Part shown: positions 9,795 to 16,339 of the stretch, in pieces
Layout of the letters: every line of letters begins with the position of its first letter
Numbering within the stretch: the first letter of the stretch is position 1
IMG/VR virus record: IMGVR_UViG_2671180884_000031
Strand: one strand, 5' to 3'
Length of the DNA: 23,679 nucleotides
Origin: a virus
Taxonomy: Duplodnaviria > Heunggongvirae > Uroviricota > Caudoviricetes
Notes under the pieces: generated by a model
Databases searched by the model: none
What the model was told of the DNA's origin: nothing
Seen by the model: the letters and a program-made list of their open reading frames with translations, nothing else
Program-made: the position numbers and the translations under genes

Positions 9795-9897
9795 TGTTAG
9801 GTATTTTAGACGTTACTAGATTAAAAAGCATTAGTTCAGGAGTGAATTGACATTCTCATTTTTCATGGCACAGGGTAGATCTGGCGTGGTTGTCCGC

Positions 9898-9918
9898 TTT
9901 GTGCCAGGAGCGGACGTT
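9898..9918. repeat. att-like repeat copy A (left boundary of cargo module 1)
   Basis: TGTGCCAGGAGCGGACGT (9900..9917) recurs exactly at 12452..12469 and in degenerate form at ~13998..14015. Confidence 0.5.
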
Positions 9919-10007
9919 GCTAATGGCATGATGTATGAACCAATGGAGAACCGATCATCTATACACATATAGATCCCTAACGAAAATATTGTTTTCACTA
10001 GCCCTGT

Positions 10008-10044
10008 AATGGAAGCGTTAATTTTATATTCTAACGCTTCCATT
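10008..10044. repeat. Perfect 13-bp inverted repeat (hairpin) downstream of the SDR gene
   Basis: AATGGAAGCGTTA (10008..10020), 11-nt loop, TAACGCTTCCATT (10032..10044); no flanking U-tract on either strand. Confidence 0.4.
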
Positions 10045-10096
10045 GAGCCTACCACTTTGGCAAAGCAATTCTTACACTTCAAAATAATGTGCTTTT

Positions 10097-10843
10097 TTAT
10101 TCAGCTAAATAACCGCCATCGATTGGATAAACGCCTCCGGTACAGAATGTAGAACTGTCTGACAGCAAGAACAATATGAAGTCTGCTATTTCCTGCATTT
10201 TTGCCATCCTTTTCATAGGGTGGCTATTTGCGAAACTACTTACAATATTTTCAGGGAACTCACTCATTCTTTGGGTTTGGACATAGCCCGGAGCGACTGC
10301 ATTGATTCGAATGCCTTGACATGCAAACTCTAGCGCTGCGGTTTGGGTTAAACCGATTATACCATGTTTAGCCACGGTGTAAGGTGCTAATCCAGGAATG
10401 CCAACCAGACCATTTACTGCAGATAAATTAACTATAGATCCACCAAACTTCATCATCTGGGGTATTTCATATTTTAGGCAGTGAAAAACGCCGCTCAATG
10501 AGGTAGCAATAACCTTATCCCAGTTTTCAACTGTCTGCTCTGTTATATTTTTACCATGTTCACCTGTTAAGCCTGCATTATTTACAGCATAATCAAGTCT
10601 GCCGAAATGTTTGATAACCTCATCTATCATTTGCCGTACTTGTTCGGGCTGTGACACATCACATCCGATCCCCATGGCTTGTTGTCCCTGTGAAGATAAT
10701 TGTTCCGCTTTTTGTTTAGCCTGTTCTGACGAGCGGGATACAATAACAACTTTTGCACCATGCTTATGTAATTGCTCTGCGACGGCCTCACCTATACCTG
10801 TAGTGCTTCCTGTTATAACGGCAATTTTATTCTGGAAATTCAT
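10097..10843 (-). CDS. SDR-family (short-chain dehydrogenase/reductase) oxidoreductase
   Basis: TGSTTGIG cofactor-binding motif, NNAG, catalytic YTVAKHG (YxxxK); start at ATG 10843 with a GGGGGTGG SD. Confidence 0.8.
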   Translation of the reverse strand: MNFQNKIAVITGSTTGIGEAVAEQLHKHGAKVVIVSRSSEQAKQKAEQLSSQGQQAMGIGCDVSQPEQVRQMIDEVIKHFGRLDYAVNNAGLTGEHGKNITEQTVENWDKVIATSLSGVFHCLKYEIPQMMKFGGSIVNLSAVNGLVGIPGLAPYTVAKHGIIGLTQTAALEFACQGIRINAVAPGYVQTQRMSEFPENIVSSFANSHPMKRMAKMQEIADFILFLLSDSSTFCTGGVYPIDGGYLAE

Positions 10844-10914
10844 AACCACCCCCTATGAAGTAGAATTGAGTCTTTCATCTGGGATAGTATACAAACCATC
10901 TGTGACAGTTTTTG

Positions 10915-11604
10915 TCAGTACTCTTTCCCCTCGCAGATCCCTTCTTTTATTCTCCATTTTTTCAATAAAATTGTCCTGCTTTCACTATAGTTGGAGTCAA
11001 GTTGCACAATATCTTCAATTTTGTCAGTTCTAAAATGACGAAAATCATTTCTCATCTCGCACCATGCAACCAAAAGCCAGCACGATTCCATGTATACCAA
11101 TCCGATGGGCCATATGACTCGTGAAGTGTAAGAATCTTTTTTATCACAATAATTTATTTTGATTTTCTTTCTTTTTTTTATAGCATTGCGAATGTCTTCA
11201 AAAAAAATCTCATTGTTTTCTGATGGACCGATCAGATAGGATTGACTCTCAATAAGATTTTTCAATTCACTGGGAATGACGGCGTGTATTTTCGCAAGCG
11301 CATTCTTTGCGGTAATTTTGAAATTATAATCTGTATTGTGCGATACCCAATTTAACCCAAGTGTAATAGCATTAATTTCTTCATGAGAAAGATTTAAGGG
11401 GGGCAAATGAAAGTCAGATTTAACAATATAACCAATTCCAGCACCACCTTCAATGCATACTCCTTGATGCTGCAGCGTTTTTATATCTCTGTAAAGGGAG
11501 CGTACACTTATTCCCAATCTTTCTGAGAGGATGGATGCTGTGATCGGATATCTTTGTGCCCTTAATATTTGTAGTAACTCGAGAAGTCTTTCTGTTCTAG
11601 TCAT
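10915..11604 (-). CDS. YafY-family transcriptional regulator (N-terminal HTH plus WYL-type ligand-binding domain)
   Basis: From the internal Met: MTRTERLLELLQILRAQRYPITASILSERLGISVRSLYRDIKTL..., a DeoR/YafY-type HTH followed by a WYL-like region; directly upstream of and co-oriented with the SDR gene. Confidence 0.6.
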   Translation of the reverse strand: MTRTERLLELLQILRAQRYPITASILSERLGISVRSLYRDIKTLQHQGVCIEGGAGIGYIVKSDFHLPPLNLSHEEINAITLGLNWVSHNTDYNFKITAKNALAKIHAVIPSELKNLIESQSYLIGPSENNEIFFEDIRNAIKKRKKIKINYCDKKDSYTSRVIWPIGLVYMESCWLLVAWCEMRNDFRHFRTDKIEDIVQLDSNYSESRTILLKKWRIKEGICEGKEY

Positions 11605-11822
11605 GTTGATAAATCCATTTTGAGGCGATTTCTTAAAGCATCTGTTAGATAAACATATTAGTACAAAGCAAGTGTACATGGCTAAGCTGAACTGCTACCG
11701 ATGATTAATACAGCGCTATGTTCGTAATGCGTACATAAGCGGTGATCATGAGTGTAAACATCCGCTTTTCGCTTATAAGGGACAACCATACTCAAATTTC
11801 CCACATTGCAGGAGATTTGAGT

Positions 11823-12425
11823 ATGAATACGTCACCGTGGAACAAAGACCGTATCATCGGCCAAAAAAGACCACTTCAGATATCTCATATCTGGGGGATC
11901 CGAATCCGGCTTGAACTGGAAGGTAAAACGCGCGATTTAGCTCTGTTCAATATGGCCCTGGACAGTAAGCTTCGAGGCTGTGATCTGGTCAAACTCAAAG
12001 TATCGGATGTGGCATATGGTAGTTCGGTTTCAAGCAGAGCAACGGTGTTGCAACAGAAAACCGGTAGCCCTGTGCAATTCGAGATAACCAAAGGGACAAG
12101 AGAAGCTGTTGCTGCATTGATAAAGCTTGGCAATTTGCACAGTAAAGACTTCTTGTTTCGGTCTCGGGTCGGAACTAACCAGCACATTTCAACCCGGCAA
12201 TACAACCGAATCTTTCATGGGTGGATAGAAAAACTTGGTCTCGAAGGTTCACTTTACAGCACACATTCAATGAGAAGAACAAAACCTTACCTGATCTACA
12301 AGAAAACCAAGAATCTCCGGGTGATCCAACTTCTGTTGGGTCATAAGAAACTGGAAAGCACAGTCCGTTATCTGGGCATTGAAGTCGATGATGCGTTAGA
12401 GATCTCTGAATCGATTGAAGTCTAA
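11823..12425 (+). CDS. Short tyrosine site-specific recombinase (~200 aa, phage-integrase family catalytic domain)
   Basis: AGGAG SD before ATG 11823; C-terminal HSMRRT...LLGHKKLESTVRYL carries the R/H-x-x-R ... Y catalytic signature. Confidence 0.65.
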   Translation: MNTSPWNKDRIIGQKRPLQISHIWGIRIRLELEGKTRDLALFNMALDSKLRGCDLVKLKVSDVAYGSSVSSRATVLQQKTGSPVQFEITKGTREAVAALIKLGNLHSKDFLFRSRVGTNQHISTRQYNRIFHGWIEKLGLEGSLYSTHSMRRTKPYLIYKKTKNLRVIQLLLGHKKLESTVRYLGIEVDDALEISESIEV

Positions 12426-12433
12426 GGTTGTCA

Positions 12434-12469
12434 GGGCTGCAACAGCAGCCCTGTGCCAGGAGCGGACGT
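12434..12469. repeat. att-like repeat copy B: hairpin GGGCTGC-AACA-GCAGCCC plus TGTGCCAGGAGCGGACGT core
   Basis: Begins 9 nt after the recombinase stop codon; hairpin plus a core identical to copy A. Confidence 0.5.
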
Positions 12470-12576
12470 CTAGTTCGCTGAACCACAAAAAGTCGTTTCT
12501 AGTTATATTACTGGCTCATTAGTATCTTTATGCGATAATATTTCATACAACCAAAATTATGATGAAGGGAGTTCAA

Positions 12577-13698
12577 ATGGCAATTACGGTCTATTCTCGT
12601 ACATTCAAAAAGGAATTGGACATGGTTCAATTGTTAAACCATTACTCATCAGATAACGCACTCAATTTCAGTGATTTCAAGGAATTTGTTGCCTTTGATG
12701 CAGAGTGCCCAATTTGCAATGTAAGCGGTGCGATTGTTGTTTCAGAAGGTTATTCGAAAAGAACAAATAAGATAGTCAGCCAATCTCATTTTGCGTTTAG
12801 AACAAAAGACGGAACTGATGCACACAAAGTATTTTGCGATCATTACAGTGGTGATGATAAGCAAATAGATTCATCAAGGGATGGTTTTATAAAATTCGGC
12901 ACCTCAGGTTCTGAGATTACAAGTATAATTCGCGAGCTTGTATGTAGAGGTATTGAACATGATGAGTTCAATCAGGAAGATATTCGAAACATGCGGCAAT
13001 GGTTTACAGAATTACGCCAGTCAGGCACTTTTTCTGTTAACTATAGCCCTCACATGATCAATCTAATAAGGGCCAGCATGTATTCCCGTAAGGGAGAAAG
13101 TAAATATATTGTAGATGAAGAGAGGAAAAATAAATCTTGGTTTGATATAAACGATGAAGTGTATCGTTCGTTAAGATTCAAATATCCATCATTGATGATC
13201 GACATGACTAATGAAAATAATTCTGTTTTCTATAATCTTGTGAATAGTACCACATTTACTAAACAAGCACATCGATTAGTAGCACGAGATCGAGGTTATC
13301 AGGTTTATGATAGAAGGTTGCTTAAAGAAAAATATGAAGCAACGATAAGAGTTGCACAAAAAATAACCAGGCATCACGAATTTCTTTTTAGGAAAATCAG
13401 GGGTATATCCGCTGTTAAAAAAAACAACCCCCTTTTGGCTGTATCTGCCTTGCTTCTTTTTGTCTCGGACTGGAATGAAACAACTGCAATCAACAAATTC
13501 ATCAAATTGTGTGGTGTAGGGAAATCTAAAAATAATGATGAGGGGAATGTAATTGGCTTAAATCCCTTTATTCATTACGATGTCTGGAATGTTATTCATC
13601 AACTTAAGGATTTAATGGTTACACTTCCAGACTTCTCAAATCTTGATGAAGAATTTGACAGAGAAAAATCCAGATTAATTGAACTTTACAAGCTCTAA
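12577..13698 (+). CDS. Hypothetical protein, 373 aa, AT-rich cargo gene; candidate accessory/anti-phage function
   Basis: GAAGGGAG SD 5 nt before ATG 12577; N-terminal CPIC ... HKVFCDH cluster suggests a metal-binding site; no family recognised by eye. Confidence 0.7.
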   Translation: MAITVYSRTFKKELDMVQLLNHYSSDNALNFSDFKEFVAFDAECPICNVSGAIVVSEGYSKRTNKIVSQSHFAFRTKDGTDAHKVFCDHYSGDDKQIDSSRDGFIKFGTSGSEITSIIRELVCRGIEHDEFNQEDIRNMRQWFTELRQSGTFSVNYSPHMINLIRASMYSRKGESKYIVDEERKNKSWFDINDEVYRSLRFKYPSLMIDMTNENNSVFYNLVNSTTFTKQAHRLVARDRGYQVYDRRLLKEKYEATIRVAQKITRHHEFLFRKIRGISAVKKNNPLLAVSALLLFVSDWNETTAINKFIKLCGVGKSKNNDEGNVIGLNPFIHYDVWNVIHQLKDLMVTLPDFSNLDEEFDREKSRLIELYKL

Positions 13699-13740
13699 CA
13701 TAAACTAGCAGGCTGCGTATACAGTCTGCTAATTTTCATA

Positions 13741-13970
13741 GTAAAGACTTCATGCTTCAGTCTCGAGTTGGAGCTATCCGTCACACATCACCCAGGCAAT
13801 TCAACCGAAATTTTTCATGGGGGGTAGAGAAGTTTTGTCTCGAAGATTTGCTTTACAGCATACTAATCATTGAACCTCTGTTGAACCATAAGAAACTGGC
13901 AAGCACAATCCGTTGCTTGGGCATTGAATTCGACGATGCGTCGTATAGCTCTGACTTGAACAAAACATAA
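13741..13970 (+). pseudogene. Degenerate duplicate of the tyrosine recombinase 3' end (remnant)
   Basis: About 75-80% nucleotide identity to 12142..12425 with an internal deletion; translation ...SRVGAIRHTSPRQFNRNF...LLNHKKLASTIRCLGIEFDDA parallels the recombinase C-terminus. Confidence 0.6.
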
Positions 13971-13978
13971 GGTTTTTA

Positions 13979-14015
13979 GGGCTGCAACAGCACCTCTGTG
14001 TCATAGGCGGAAGTT
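13979..14015. repeat. att-like repeat copy C (degenerate)
   Basis: GGGCTGCAACAGCACCTCTGTGTCATAGGCGGAAGT parallels copy B in the same position relative to the recombinase remnant. Confidence 0.45.
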
Positions 14016-14311
14016 AACAAACATTAAAATCTCTAAATCTGTAGGGATCAGACTCCTTCTATAAAAGGATACTGTTCATATCCTTAGTTGTATATAGGTG
14101 TGTTTAGAGTATTAGGATGCTAGTTTTGAAAATTAATTTTTTAAACATATTGAATTTTTTAAGAATTGGGAATAGTGTATAGCTTTGTCATGGCGGATTT
14201 TTTCTCTTCAAGTATTTATTTGAACACTACTTCTTGCACCTGCAAGGTTACAATATCGTGTAAATTTGTTCACAAAGACATAGATTATAATTTTTACTTA
14301 AAGGAAATTCA

Positions 14312-15565
14312 ATGTCAAAAAATCTCCCGGTTTTATTAAGCTCGCCATCAACAACTAATTTTCCTGCAACAGTTAATACTGAAATAGAATTCCTTTCGCA
14401 AGCTAGAAAGTTGTTAGATTCTGGCTTCCCTGATCATGCTCTTTTAGATATATGGAATGCATCCATTCATAATCTTAGGCGGCGAATTGAGGCTTATGGT
14501 TTAGACTTATTCCTTTCCGCAATAAAGGATGATAGTGGTCGTAAAAAATATGATAAAGATGGTGAAACAATAAACGAGAGATGGTCAGGTGTAGATGATT
14601 TAGTGCTAATAAGTGGAGCCACCAAATTAGGGGTTCTGCATAAGAAAGCTGGAAAATCATTAGAAATGATCAATTGGATGAGAAACCATGCCTCTCCAGC
14701 CCATGCAAGTGATAGTAAAGTAGAGTCTGAGGATGTGTTTGCTTTGGCTCTTATGCTCCAGAAGAATTTATTCGAATCTGATATGCCAGACCCTGGACAT
14801 TCGCCATCTGGATTATTTGAACCCATAAAAAAATCTGAACTATCAATTGAGAGCATAGACTTACTTAAAGATCAAATAAGAGCATTTAAGCAAGCTGATA
14901 TAAGAATAACATTTGGATTTTTATTGGATTTAATAACTAAGGGGGAAAATCCTGCTTATGTTAATGCTAGCAAGTTGTTTGAACAAGCATGGGAAAGATC
15001 TAATGATGACCTTAAAAAAACAGCGGGGGAAAGATATCACTCATTTATGCTGGAGCCCGAATCGGATACAAGTGAGGATAAAGGAGCAAAAATAAGAATT
15101 TTAGAGACTTTAGTAAAAGTTAATGGTGTGAAATTTATACCTGATGCTGCTAGGGCAAGTTTATACAGACATGCGGTTAAACAGCTAGCTAAAGCTAAGG
15201 ATACATCTTACGGCTGGAATGATGAAGAAAGAGCAGCCAAGGCACTTATACAATTTGGACCTCATGTTCCATCTATTGCTTTTGAAGATGTATATCAAGA
15301 AATACTTACTGTTTGGGTGGGGAATTACTGGGGAAGATCTGATGCACATTTAGTACTTCAACCATTTTTAGATGTGTTAAATAGTAATCAATTGATGGCT
15401 CTCTCACGGTTGTTCGTGGAGAATGAAAGAGCAAATTCAGAACTGGTGTCATCAAGGCCCAAAAGAAGAGCAATAGAATTACTTGAGATAATAAAAAATA
15501 ATCTAACAATTCAAGCAAGCATTGATGAAATTGATAGGATTATTTCTGAAATTGATAAAATGTAA
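14312..15565 (+). CDS. Hypothetical protein, 417 aa, with HEPN-like R-x6-H motif; candidate abortive-infection/defence protein
   Basis: AAGGAAA SD before ATG 14312; helical N-terminal region with WMRNHASPAH (R-x6-H) resembling the HEPN active-site motif; AT-rich; own terminator downstream. Confidence 0.7.
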   Translation: MSKNLPVLLSSPSTTNFPATVNTEIEFLSQARKLLDSGFPDHALLDIWNASIHNLRRRIEAYGLDLFLSAIKDDSGRKKYDKDGETINERWSGVDDLVLISGATKLGVLHKKAGKSLEMINWMRNHASPAHASDSKVESEDVFALALMLQKNLFESDMPDPGHSPSGLFEPIKKSELSIESIDLLKDQIRAFKQADIRITFGFLLDLITKGENPAYVNASKLFEQAWERSNDDLKKTAGERYHSFMLEPESDTSEDKGAKIRILETLVKVNGVKFIPDAARASLYRHAVKQLAKAKDTSYGWNDEERAAKALIQFGPHVPSIAFEDVYQEILTVWVGNYWGRSDAHLVLQPFLDVLNSNQLMALSRLFVENERANSELVSSRPKRRAIELLEIIKNNLTIQASIDEIDRIISEIDKM

Positions 15566-15577
15566 TTTATTTGCAAT

Positions 15578-15610
15578 TAAGCCATGCTTTTTAGGTGGCT
15601 TATTTTTTTT
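15578..15610 (+). terminator. Rho-independent terminator after the 417-aa gene
   Basis: AAGCCA ... TGGCTT stem followed by an 8-T run, 13 nt after the stop codon. Confidence 0.55.
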
Positions 15611-15882
15611 GAATCTACTACTTATATTGATATTAGCAATGTAATTGCTAAAGTATTCCTAGCCCACTATTCATCTAAATATGGTTGTCGAAAGGCCCGC
15701 TTCTCGCTCAAAGCGGACTAGAAGGTTAGCTTGTGTCGGACTTTGCGTATTAAATGACTAGTGGTTGAGCCCCATTTCCACAGAAAAAATCAGAGAAACT
15801 ATACCCAATAGTTGTATTGAATCACTGACGAGACAGCCTCATATTCATCAGGACTGGTGTACGTCCAATACAGGAGGTTGTG

Positions 15883-15972: not shown

Positions 15973-16183
15973 TTTCACATTGGCGAGGTAACGGTAGTTA
16001 AGTAGAATGGCTGCGGGTGCTTGAGGCTATCTGCCTCGGGCATGAACACCAACGGCAGATAGAGAAAAGCCCCAGTTAACATTACGCGTCCTGCAAGACG
16101 CTTAACATTAATCTGAGGCCAATTTCATGCTAGACATATGTAGGTTAGCCTCTTACGTGCCGAAAGGCAAGGAGAAGCAGGCT

Positions 16184-16339
16184 ATGAAGCAGCAAAAGGC
16201 GATGTTAATCGCCCTGATCGTCATCTGTTTAACCGTCATAGTGACGGCACTGGTAACGAGGAAAGACCTCTGCGAGGTACGAATCCGAACCGGCCAGACG
16301 GAGGTCGCTGTCTTCACAGCTTACGAACCTGAGGAGTAA
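16184..16339 (+). CDS. hokD: Hok-family small membrane toxin HokD (RelF)
   Basis: MKQQKAMLIALIVICLTVIVTALVTRKDLCEVRIRTGQTEVAVFTAYEPEE matches recalled HokD; AAGGAGAA SD; an in-frame upstream ATG at 16127 could give an extended form. Confidence 0.8.
   Translation: MKQQKAMLIALIVICLTVIVTALVTRKDLCEVRIRTGQTEVAVFTAYEPEE

Follow-up and report, generated by a model that had tools for sequence, protein, structure and literature searches.

Genes of the SDR–WYL Pair and Their Prophage Setting

The DNA analysed here, referred to below as the window, is a stretch of 23,679 nucleotides from a Caudoviricetes record in IMG/VR (IMGVR_UViG_2671180884_000031). It contains two genes on the minus strand, a classical SDR oxidoreductase of 248 aa (10097–10843) and a YafY-type regulator of 229 aa with an HTH_11 and a WYL domain (10915–11604), followed on the plus strand by a tyrosine recombinase of 200 aa (11823–12425). 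The starts of the pair are those of RefSeq; in the open-reading-frame list, the same genes had been given as 10097–10849 and 10915–11679, both on the minus strand. A reading made earlier from the sequence only had described the SDR and the regulator as co-oriented and 71 bp apart, and this was confirmed, the gap being exactly 10844–10914 with the RefSeq starts. The SDR matched the Pfam models adh_short_C2 (E = 4e-70) and adh_short (E = 6e-56), and the motifs TGxxxGxG, NNAG, and YxxxK of classical SDRs were found as TGSTTGIG at residue 11, NNAG at residue 88, and YTVAK at residue 155. An Arg residue after beta-2 (VSRS) suggests a preference for NADP(H). No NCBIfam equivalog exceeded its cut-off (the best was PRK06172, with 254.8 bits against 336), so the substrate of the SDR is not assignable; the nearest solved structures were ketoreductases and alcohol dehydrogenases. 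In the regulator, HTH_11 was found at residues 6–60 (E = 1e-13) and WYL at residues 135–199 (E = 1.5e-16), which is the YafY-type architecture (COG2378), and its close homologues are named “YafY family” in their sources. The recombinase matched Phage_integrase (PF00589, E = 1e-17). The domain matches of the pair and of the recombinase are strong, i.e., far beyond chance.

The pair had also been regarded as phage cargo, and its position bears this out. It is located inside a Qin-like lambdoid prophage that adjoins rspB, between a DUF977 replication-region gene and hokD/rem. The prophage is defective, with frameshifts in the terminase and FI genes. Among phage records, there was no DNA match to the pair and only three distant protein matches to the recombinase, so the pair is not typical phage cargo. 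A simpler explanation would be that the prophage had merely inserted beside an ordinary conserved chromosomal locus, and in Citrobacter amalonaticus the pair is indeed chromosomal, with eroded sites and an identical regulator protein on at least 24 contigs (three contexts compared, which have one common neighbourhood). For the window, we consider this explanation very improbable. The pair has prophage genes on both sides, with the prophage integrase and attachment region 8 kb away; it was found in only 3 of 5,426 complete E. coli genomes and is absent from the other 5,423; and the segment that carries it has a lower GC content (38.7%) than the window (42.7%). Furthermore, E. coli 042 has the prophage backbone on both sides, and the homology between this backbone and the window stops at 9892–9915 and starts again at 15695–15718; the stretch between these points is taken up by other cassettes in 042. 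E. coli 042, pDCE7-1, and the window each have their own set of cassettes in this slot of the prophage.

Boundaries of the Cassette and Its Copies in Other Replicons

The pair belongs to a discrete cassette of 1.9 kb (about 9892 to 11783) that lies between two inverted 24-bp palindromic sites. The left site, S1 (type A, GTCCGCTTTGTGCCAGGAGCGGAC; 9892–9915, plus strand), is the left end of this cassette and of the whole array described below, and its upstream flank is conserved (GGTTGTC). The right site, S2 (type B, ATCCGCTTTTCGCTTATAAGGGAC; 11760–11783, plus strand), is inverted relative to S1 and is at the same time the left end of the recombinase module. Besides the two genes, the cassette contains a noncoding 3′ part downstream of the SDR (9916–10096, minus strand), common to the copies of a Klebsiella SB1170 plasmid, Cronobacter, and metagenomes, and the region upstream of the regulator (11605–11759, minus strand), which is conserved with the plasmid copies.

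Copies of the cassette with 85–91% nucleotide identity, spanning window positions 9891/9901 to 11767/11777, were located in Klebsiella and Rahnella plasmids, in a Cronobacter chromosome (beside fliE), and in two metagenome contigs. The flanks are unrelated between these replicons, and the homology begins and ends at the two inverted sites. The orientation of the cassette relative to the sites was constant in every context examined, with A at the 3′ end of the SDR and B at the upstream region of the regulator. The sequence-only reading had proposed a mobile module carried with a recombinase. The mobile part of this proposal is upheld by the discrete cassette and by homology that ends at the sites; an obligate partnership with the recombinase is not. 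When we checked whether the pair always travels with the recombinase, no adjacent recombinase was present in the Klebsiella and Rahnella plasmids, the Cronobacter and Citrobacter chromosomes, or the metagenome contigs. Conversely, the recombinase occurs with other cargo in approximately 1,090 E. coli genomes. In the window, exact 18-bp direct repeats (9900–9917 and 12452–12469) enclose the pair together with the recombinase.

A Small Recombinase Inside a Site Junction

The recombinase consists of a catalytic domain only. Residues R51, H148-x-x-R151, H174, and Y183 are all present, in keeping with the R-K-H-R-H/W-Y signature of tyrosine recombinases, and the Pfam coordinates leave no space for a core-binding domain, so the protein may need a partner or have a different mode of action. 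Its matches to PDB sequences were only faint (XerD, E = 0.007). The gene is preceded by a leader hairpin that hides the Shine–Dalgarno sequence and the ATG (11787–11825, plus strand), and it is followed by a GC hairpin, CAGGGCTG-caacag-CAGCCCTG, fused to site S3 of type A (12432–12467, plus strand). The latter feature forms the right end of the module and matches S1 as an exact 18-bp direct repeat. The module is 708 bp long, and in the prophage, island, and ICE contexts the homology spans S2 to S3 exactly. The gene sits inside a B–A junction, where it replaces the 18-bp spacer, and its direction is invariably from B to A; in the two sites that border it, the inner arms are degenerate (AAGGGAC and CAGCCCT).

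The recombinase family is large, with at least 7,999 protein clusters and more than 540 species-level genomes. It is conserved at ≥ 60% identity across proteobacterial classes, and the usable homologues among the matches listed were all at least 78% identical. The gene is framed by sites in every lineage. Distant homologues in Pseudomonas and other bacteria keep terminal inverted repeats with GTCCGCT and AGCGGAC ends, and the site sequence covaries with the recombinase lineage (Pseudomonas GTCCGCTTCTGGCCGGTTAGCGAC versus the enteric sequence). In full-text literature searches, we found no description of the array system or of the small recombinase. Assignment to the IntKX subgroup of Smyshlyaev et al. 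(2021; PMC8138268) was considered and rejected, because IntKX comprises ICE integrases of another family.

Organization of the Array and Its Recombination Sites

The SDR–WYL cassette opens an array of several cassettes (9892–15718) that fills the variable slot of the Qin-like prophage. On the plus strand, the recombinase module is followed by the next cassette, with a cargo ORF of unassigned function (phrog_12525; 12559–13698), by a decayed second copy of the recombinase (13719–14013) that retains the 3′ half, the hairpin, and a degenerate type A site (13977–14013), and by another cargo ORF without an assigned function (phrog_27609; 14312–15565). The array ends at S5, a type B site (GCCCGCTTCTCGCTCAAAGCGGAC; 15695–15718, plus strand). 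Searches of PDB sequences with both of these cargo proteins gave no match.

The sites share a 24-bp consensus with palindromic arms, GTCCGC-N12-GCGGAC, and two subtypes are distinguished by two central positions (A, TGTGCCA; B, TGAGCGA). In 19 enterobacterial loci, the motif was found 116 times, compared with 5–10 times in shuffled sequences, and the orientation of the sites alternates strictly. One A and one B site, mutually inverted, flank 42 of 47 cargo blocks. Between blocks, the junction order was B–A in 29 cases and A–B in 4, and the junctions, which are imperfect palindromes, measure 63–66 bp (66 bp corresponding to B, 18 bp, and A); those with the recombinase inside have 706–709 bp. 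The blocks contain complete genes with their own regulators on either strand, and the cargo of the other arrays is mixed: SIR2-HerA, Lit, restriction enzymes, arsenic and metal efflux, and pairs of a LysR- or TetR-type regulator with an oxidoreductase. Breakpoints of homology between loci fell within 40 nt of a site in 362 of 490 cases (74%), although only 2.9% of the sequence is that close to a site, which is the proportion expected by chance; the statistic is dominated by the recombinase module.

In non-enteric loci (Pseudomonas, Burkholderiales, and others), a generic site motif with two mismatches was too noisy (448 matches versus about 195 in shuffled sequences); with one mismatch, it was about five-fold enriched (53 versus about 11). 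Clean alternation of sites was not seen in these loci with the crude one-mismatch motif, so the array grammar is demonstrated for Enterobacterales only. Individual Pseudomonas junctions are similar in appearance.

All cargo blocks lie between inverted repeats, as does the recombinase gene, and this raises the question of whether the sites mark phase-variable segments, which a FimB/FimE-like invertase or a shufflon enzyme would invert to switch the expression of flanking cargo. The recombinase shares with FimB and FimE a size of about 200 aa and the lack of a core-binding domain, inverted repeats are also the substrates of FimB/FimE and of the Rci shufflon recombinase, the protein weakly matches an NCBIfam model of tyrosine-type DNA invertases (E = 2.6e-5), and sections of the array are reversed in a few loci (L017, L018, and L089). 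However, the score against this model (NF007371) was 23.9 bits, far below the cut-off of 222, and both the SDR–WYL cassette and the recombinase always face the same way with respect to A and B, which places the protein outside the FimB/FimE invertases. The segments are whole accessory genes rather than promoters or gene 3′ ends, and inversion of complete genes that have their own regulators and occur in either orientation would change nothing obvious. Furthermore, the difference between the A and B central regions should disfavour A × B exchange, and the presence of the same cassette in unrelated replicons is inexplicable by inversion. Membership in the shufflons (Rci/sfx) was likewise rejected, because the blocks hold complete genes and no block occurred in both orientations among the contexts compared. 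No sign of inversion was found, and we regard it as an unlikely account of the array.

A second alternative is that the palindromes are REP-like structural or terminator repeats at which homologous recombination or other processes reshuffle modules, with the recombinase as a bystander, e.g., a decayed integrase. Many arrays and solo cassettes have no adjacent recombinase, the sites are hairpin-forming palindromes located between genes, and the link between protein and sites is a predicted one. These points are offset by the framing of the recombinase gene in every lineage by sites that shift with the lineage, by the ends of the 708-bp module, which are identical in all contexts, and by the fully intact catalytic residues and wide conservation of the family. 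The two alternating subtypes and the fixed junctions of 63–66 bp fit a recombination grammar better than terminators, and in an Rfam scan of the array no family matched the junctions (sok was the only family found, outside the array). We therefore judge repeat-mediated reshuffling, like inversion, to have only a small chance of being correct.

Proposed Exchange of Cassettes and Comparison With Known Systems

The explanation that we prefer, and consider probable with moderate confidence, is that the pair is a self-regulated stress or detoxification operon packaged as a mobile cassette in a recombinase-linked array. In this model, the recombinase would bind the arms common to the A and B sites and would join A with A and B with B only, because strand exchange would need matching central regions. 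The excised circles would consist of cargo and one junction, and could insert into arrays on plasmids, integrative elements, islands, and prophages. Exchange between S1 and S3 would yield a 2.55-kb circle that carries the SDR, the regulator, and the recombinase itself. Both catalysis by the recombinase and the like-with-like choice of sites are predictions from the arrangement of genes and sites.

Integrons are an obvious point of comparison. Their recombinase IntI is a protein of approximately 320 aa with an IntI-specific extra domain, encoded beside attI and Pc, and their cassettes are promoterless, lie in one orientation, and each end in an attC imperfect palindrome. The arrays described here resemble integrons in combining exchangeable cassettes with a tyrosine recombinase, in their imperfect-palindrome junctions of about 60–70 bp, in which two conserved mismatches recall the strand-marking bases of attC, and in their mixture of defence, resistance, and unknown cargo, with many arrays that have no recombinase (cf. 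CALINs). In contrast, the recombinase here has 200 aa, without a core-binding domain or an IntI-specific insertion, and it scored 53.5 bits against a cut-off of 220 for the NCBIfam XerA/integron-integrase model, which separates it from IntI. Its gene is located within a junction and not at an array end beside attI, the cassettes come with promoters and regulators of their own and point in either direction, and each junction consists of two separate 24-bp palindromes of two subtypes.

The likeness to the pdif/dif modules of Acinetobacter concerns the inverted sites that alternate along the replicon with two kinds of module position, as found in the 19 loci and in the A/B flanks of the blocks, the cargo (resistance, toxin–antitoxin, and regulator–enzyme genes), and the presence of the same module in different plasmids. 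The sites themselves differ: the consensus is not of the 11-6-11 XerC/XerD dif-like form (28-mers), and by inspection we take it to bear no resemblance to the dif sequence. The arrays also have a dedicated small recombinase instead of the host XerCD, and they are not confined to Acinetobacter plasmids, being found in many Proteobacteria on prophages, ICEs, islands, and plasmids.

More broadly, the arrays could represent a very widespread new cassette platform, parallel to integrons and the Acinetobacter dif modules and run by a catalytic-domain-only recombinase of 200 aa, in which self-regulated cassettes between alternating A and B sites are swapped among prophages, plasmids, ICEs, and chromosomes. 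It is possible that the 66-bp B–A junction folds into a single-stranded substrate resembling attC, in which the two conserved mismatches mark the strand. We put this broader interpretation forward tentatively, as somewhat short of an even chance. If the recombinase moves cassettes, Enterobacterales would have a second general trade route for accessory genes beside integrons, connecting phages, plasmids, and chromosomes, and other Proteobacteria would probably use it too. This would explain why Qin-type prophages of pathogenic E. coli have a variable slot, and it would account for many genes annotated as “orphan” small integrases. The A/B site grammar would provide a simple search key for new defence and resistance cassettes, and so small a recombinase (200 aa), acting on 24-bp sites, would make an attractive tool for genome engineering.

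Predicted Regulation and Function of the Pair

Regulator, operator-like element, and enzyme gene follow one another in the cassette. The element, CTGACAAAAACTGTCAC (10902–10918, minus strand), overlaps the stop codon of the regulator and precedes a −10-like TATACT (10886–10891) by 10 nt. It is invariant in all copies, including a 66%-identical copy in Shewanella, and it also occurs 3′ of distant regulator homologues that precede VOC/glyoxalase genes. A consensus promoter scan gave no convincing sigma-70 promoter for the SDR, and in the promoter and terminator scan such sites were no more frequent than in shuffled sequences, so the promoter assignments are based solely on conservation. Homologues of the regulator occur in ordinary chromosomal settings (Shewanella and Citrobacter) upstream of SDR or VOC/glyoxalase genes, and in Legionella the regulator, a VOC gene, and a GyrI-like gene lie near genes with AlkB-like (2OG-FeII_Oxy_2) and Ada-like domains.

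The pair has the appearance of a stress or detoxification operon rather than of a phage-defence module. The sequence-only reading had raised the idea of a defence sensor or effector. In the form considered here, infection would be sensed by the WYL protein, with the SDR as effector. BrxR and CapW are WYL regulators of BREX and CBASS and have been proposed as infection sensors; they share the HTH and WYL architecture and the mobile-element location with the regulator described here. The regulator also matches PADLOC WYL models (PDLC01457, E = 2.6e-61), the pair occupies an accessory slot of a prophage, and SIR2-HerA, Lit, and restriction enzymes are among the cargo of neighbouring cassettes elsewhere. 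However, the PADLOC match is to a generic HTH-WYL profile, the downstream gene is an SDR without a PADLOC match, and its closest solved relatives are ketoreductases and alcohol dehydrogenases. In contrast to BrxR and CapW, the regulator is shorter and has no adjacent defence operon, the chromosomal homologues stand with VOC or SDR genes, the Legionella neighbourhood contains AlkB-like and Ada-like domain genes, and cassette cargo in general is mixed, including the LysR/TetR–oxidoreductase pairs. The idea thus found no support, and we consider a defence role quite improbable and the regulator not to be a defence-system WYL regulator.

For the stress or detoxification operon that we favour, we propose the following mode of regulation. 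The regulator would bind CTGACAAAAACTGTCAC just upstream of the SDR promoter, and binding of a ligand by the WYL domain would switch on the NADP(H)-dependent reductase; activation, as opposed to repression, is part of the prediction. A possible ligand is single-stranded DNA or a different signal of genotoxic stress, as in SiwR, PafBC, and DriD. In ssDNA-sensing WYL activators, arginines of the WYL domain bind ssDNA, a WCX extension is present, and targets are activated under DNA damage. The WYL domain of the regulator can be aligned with that of PafC across an R-x-F-R-x-D stretch (FRHFRTDKI versus VRNFRLDRV), with low similarity to PafBC (E = 1e-5). Only about 30 residues lie beyond the WYL domain, and the 229-aa regulator is probably without the WCX extension of the ssDNA-sensing factors. 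The pair itself has a smaller payoff than the array: it offers a tractable short WYL regulator with a recognisable operator-like element and a single enzyme target.

Of the known WYL factors, SiwR is a characterised analogue: during genotoxic stress, it binds ssDNA and turns on neighbouring genes for small enzymes with a putative role in detoxification, and its palindrome lies between the −35 and −10 elements (PMC10693628). The layout predicted here is similar to that of SiwR, PafBC, and DriD in having an HTH-WYL factor, an adjacent small putative detoxification enzyme, and a palindrome immediately before the −10 element, whereas the length of the regulator, its probable lack of WCX, its low similarity, and its SDR target are different. 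In some Actinobacteria, a glyoxalase-like gene adjoins siwR (PMC10693628), as VOC/glyoxalase genes follow the distant homologues of our regulator.

Genomic context of the gene pair

The gene pair is of an ordinary operon type and is a new member of the class in which a YafY-type regulator is coupled to a small enzyme; the point of interest is its packaging: it forms a single cassette within a regular array system that is widespread and is served by a minimal tyrosine recombinase. The ORF listing and the RefSeq start sites confirmed the two genes proposed by the sequence-only reading, which are 71 bp apart and lie on the minus strand: an SDR gene (ORF 10097–10849; with the RefSeq start, 10097–10843, 248 aa) and a WYL regulator gene (ORF 10915–11679; with the RefSeq start, 10915–11604, 229 aa). 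They are adjoined by a divergent tyrosine recombinase gene (11823–12425, 200 aa), in which the R, HxxR, H, and Y residues are all intact. The product of 10097–10843 is a classical SDR (Pfam adh_short_C2, E = 4e-70) with the motifs TGSTTGIG, NNAG, and YTVAK, and the solved structures nearest to it are those of ketoreductases and alcohol dehydrogenases. No NCBIfam equivalog model that could have named the substrate matched at its cut-off. The regulator is an HTH_11 and WYL protein of the YafY type.

A 2.7-kb query (9800–12500) was 100% identical to three Shiga-toxigenic Escherichia coli chromosomes, and the host region is a Qin-like lambdoid prophage adjoining rspB. The pair lies 8 kb inside this prophage, between a DUF977 replication-region gene and hokD/rem, and was present in 3 of the 5,426 complete E. 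coli genomes (the recombinase, in about 1,090), which contradicts the idea of an ordinary chromosomal locus beside which the prophage had merely inserted. The DNA of the pair had no match among 50,697 phage records, and it is therefore not common phage cargo.

The pair was also found at approximately 90% nucleotide identity on ten plasmids of Klebsiella variicola, K. pneumoniae, and Rahnella. The alignments between these plasmids and the window break off sharply at both ends of the cassette, where two related sequences occur, inverted relative to each other: S1 (GTCCGCTTTGTGCCAGGAGCGGAC, 9892–9915) and S2 (ATCCGCTTTTCGCTTATAAGGGAC, 11760–11783). The segment between the sites (window 9891/9901 to 11773/11777) is also found, with unrelated flanks, beside fliE in a Cronobacter chromosome and in two metagenome contigs. 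In Citrobacter amalonaticus, the pair is chromosomal and the sites are eroded, and Shewanella fodinae has the pair at 66% identity without sites. This site-less copy suggests that an ordinary operon was captured.

Organization of the arrays

An exact 18-bp copy of S1 is located 3′ of the recombinase gene (12452–12469; 0.01 expected by chance), and further copies occur at about 13997 (decayed) and at 15695–15718 (S5). A full-length sok antitoxin RNA with hokD (16015–16189; Rfam RF01794, 112.7 bits) directly follows this last site. A relative of the recombinase was present in at least 547 species-level genomes, and 80 loci were gathered from other species. Nineteen enterobacterial loci together contained 116 copies of the motif TG[AT]GC[CG]ANNAGCGGAC, compared with 5–10 in shuffled sequences, and the site orientation alternated strictly. 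In these loci, the “> cargo <” blocks span 0.5–5.4 kb, and the “< >” intervals are either 63–66 bp or the 706–709-bp recombinase module. The sites fall into two subtypes differing at two central positions (A, TGTGCCA; B, TGAGCGA), and 42 of 47 blocks had one A and one B site around the cargo. The junctions were B–A (n = 29) or A–B (n = 4), and all the A–B junctions were in inverted array sections. An array of invertible segments, i.e., a shufflon- or fim-like switch, is disfavored because the orientation of the cassette and of the recombinase relative to A and B is fixed in every context.

Similarity between loci ended ≤ 40 nt from a site in 362 of 490 cases, compared with 2.9% of the sequence, a count dominated by the recombinase module. 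Between the window and E. coli 042, the prophage-backbone similarity ends at S1 and restarts at S5, and the cassettes between them differ. In pDCE7-1 (comparison locus L097, 1900–2790), the DUF977–hokD slot holds a single recombinase-less A–cargo–B cassette encoding a 196-aa hypothetical protein, and in ST131-type prophages (L098, MNCRE44, 1830–2910), it holds queH and only a decayed A site. The slot contents thus vary between lambdoid prophages, which makes this position a recurrent variable region in the family.

The recombinase module

The Qin prophage of E. coli 042, an ICE, and a genomic island each carry the recombinase gene at ≥ 96% identity, and its neighbors differ among them. The DNA common to the three starts exactly at S2 and stops exactly at S3 (12444–12467), defining a 708-bp module. 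In S2 and S3, the cargo-side arms (GTCCGCT/AGCGGAC) are intact and the gene-side arms (AAGGGAC/CAGCCCT) are degenerate, unlike the junction sites elsewhere, in which both arms are intact. A decayed 3′ half of a second recombinase at 13719–14013 (about 75% identity to 12120–12469), with its hairpin and a degenerate A site, points to a recombinase module that this array contained earlier.

The family comprises at least 7,999 clusters at 90% identity, all of about 200 aa and all generically named. The recombinase was found on 442 plasmids, and only three phage-record matches were obtained, each at < 60% identity. A PDB sequence search gave no close solved structure. The IntKX group was considered as its family and rejected as a different group. 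Distant homologs (60–66% identity) in Pseudomonas, Burkholderiales, and Alteromonadales retain terminal inverted repeats ending in GTCCGCT/AGCGGAC, the inner parts of which are lineage-specific; the generic site motif resolved no arrays around these homologs, and junction-like composites are present in the Pseudomonas loci.

A hairpin in the recombinase leader, CATACTCAAATTTCC-N9-GGAGATTTGAGTATG (11787–11825), buries the Shine–Dalgarno sequence and the start codon. Of the 75 distinct leaders across the family, 63 are predicted to fold with the Shine–Dalgarno sequence paired, and compensatory changes are clear (e.g., GTCCTCC/GGAGGAC in Pseudomonas). This hairpin suggests that translational control of the recombinase is conserved.

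Proposed recombination scheme

In tyrosine recombinases, differing central regions normally limit exchange to like sites. Because the arms GTCCGC/GCGGAC are common to A and B, one protein could bind both. Within an array, all A sites are direct repeats of each other, as are all B sites, so A × A or B × B exchange would excise a circle containing the cargo and one B–18–A junction. The reverse reaction would insert the circle into any other array and preserve the alternation, in agreement with the observed arrays. We infer all of these steps from comparative sequence patterns. In the window, S1 × S3 exchange would release the SDR, regulator, and recombinase genes together, and to this extent the earlier view of the pair as a mobile module with a recombinase is retained; that the two always travel together is contradicted by the ten plasmids, in none of which is a recombinase adjacent to the pair.

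The 66-bp B–18 bp–A junctions (e.g., 4009–4074 in L007 and 9277–9342 in L014, two of the comparison loci) each form one long imperfect palindrome, the arms of which differ, almost without exception, at two fixed positions (T/T and C/C mismatches if folded). Given this structure, the junction may act as an attC-like folded single-strand substrate; the two conserved mismatches recall the extrahelical bases that mark the strand in integron attC sites. The array would work like an integron, but it lacks both an IntI (53.5 bits against a cut-off of 220) and the attI/Pc layout, and its cassettes are self-promoted. Its working would also be similar to that of the Acinetobacter dif modules, from which it differs in having a recombinase of its own and sites that do not resemble dif. 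The array thus fails the defining features of both systems. With FimB/FimE, only the small build lacking a core-binding domain is shared (23.9 bits against a cut-off of 222). We could not find a description of the array system or its recombinase in the full-text literature searched, which excludes most subscription journals, and an earlier description may exist elsewhere.

Probable regulation and function of the pair

An operator-like element, CTGACAAAAACTGTCAC (10902–10918), opens the 71-bp spacer and overlaps the regulator stop codon; a −10-like hexamer, TATACT, follows 10 nt downstream. The element is invariant in all copies of the pair, including the 66%-identical Shewanella copy. Regulator homologs with 45–50% identity in Legionella, P. 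aeruginosa, Microvirga, and Cronobacter malonaticus retain the element at the same position, and the downstream gene is not an SDR but a VOC/glyoxalase or a small unknown gene. A conserved element with a swapped downstream gene is the pattern of a regulator that would control whichever small enzyme gene follows it. The WYL domain aligns with PafC, including the R-x-F-R-x-D stretch, and the TGTC-N12-TAnnnT spacing at the pair resembles that of the PafBC-dependent RecA-NDp promoter.

The closest studied analog is SiwR of Mycobacterium smegmatis, a WYL factor that, by binding ssDNA, switches on putative detoxification enzymes adjacent to it when genotoxic stress occurs, with a palindrome between −35 and −10; in some Actinobacteria, a glyoxalase-like gene adjoins siwR (PMC10693628). 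In Legionella quinlivanii (L100, 1564–5579), a 47%-identical regulator and the operator-like element are followed by VOC and GyrI-like genes, and genes with AlkB-like and Ada-like domains lie about 1 kb upstream. This neighborhood hints at genotoxic chemicals as the signal for the regulator subfamily.

The SDR is best read as an NADP(H)-dependent carbonyl reductase or alcohol dehydrogenase that a putative WYL switch would induce under stress. A defense role gained no support, as the SDR had no PADLOC match and the regulator matched generic WYL profiles only; PHROGs places the SDR among morons and auxiliary metabolic genes. The likeliest role of the pair is that of a stress or detoxification moron.

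Cargo of the arrays

The cargo scan covered 71 ORFs in 41 cassettes. The matches included SIR2 with HerA (three times), Lit peptidase U49, DUF4238, and NUDIX; the transport proteins ArsB, a cation-efflux protein, and MFS transporters; and three LysR regulators, FMN reductase, DJ-1, Rrf2, GNAT, and EAL. One island carried a restriction endonuclease and an HNH endonuclease, and on a Klebsiella plasmid, LysR–SDR and TetR–VOC–SDR sets adjoin the recombinase. The cargo is therefore a mix of defense, resistance, and regulated redox/detoxification genes, which lie on either strand and bring their own regulators. The window itself carries two further cargo proteins, of 379 aa (12559–13698; phrog_12525) and 417 aa (14312–15565; phrog_27609), both in PHROG families of unknown function and with no Pfam, NCBIfam, PADLOC, or PDB sequence match. 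Because other cassettes carry SIR2–HerA and Lit, they are candidates for defense or accessory functions. On K. pneumoniae pRHB39-C24_2 (L089, 3900–12500), almost all the annotated cargo near the recombinase consists of regulator and oxidoreductase sets (TetR–VOC, SDR–NTF2–SDR, LysR–SDR, and VOC with saccharopine dehydrogenase), and such regulated redox enzymes seem to form a frequent class of cargo.
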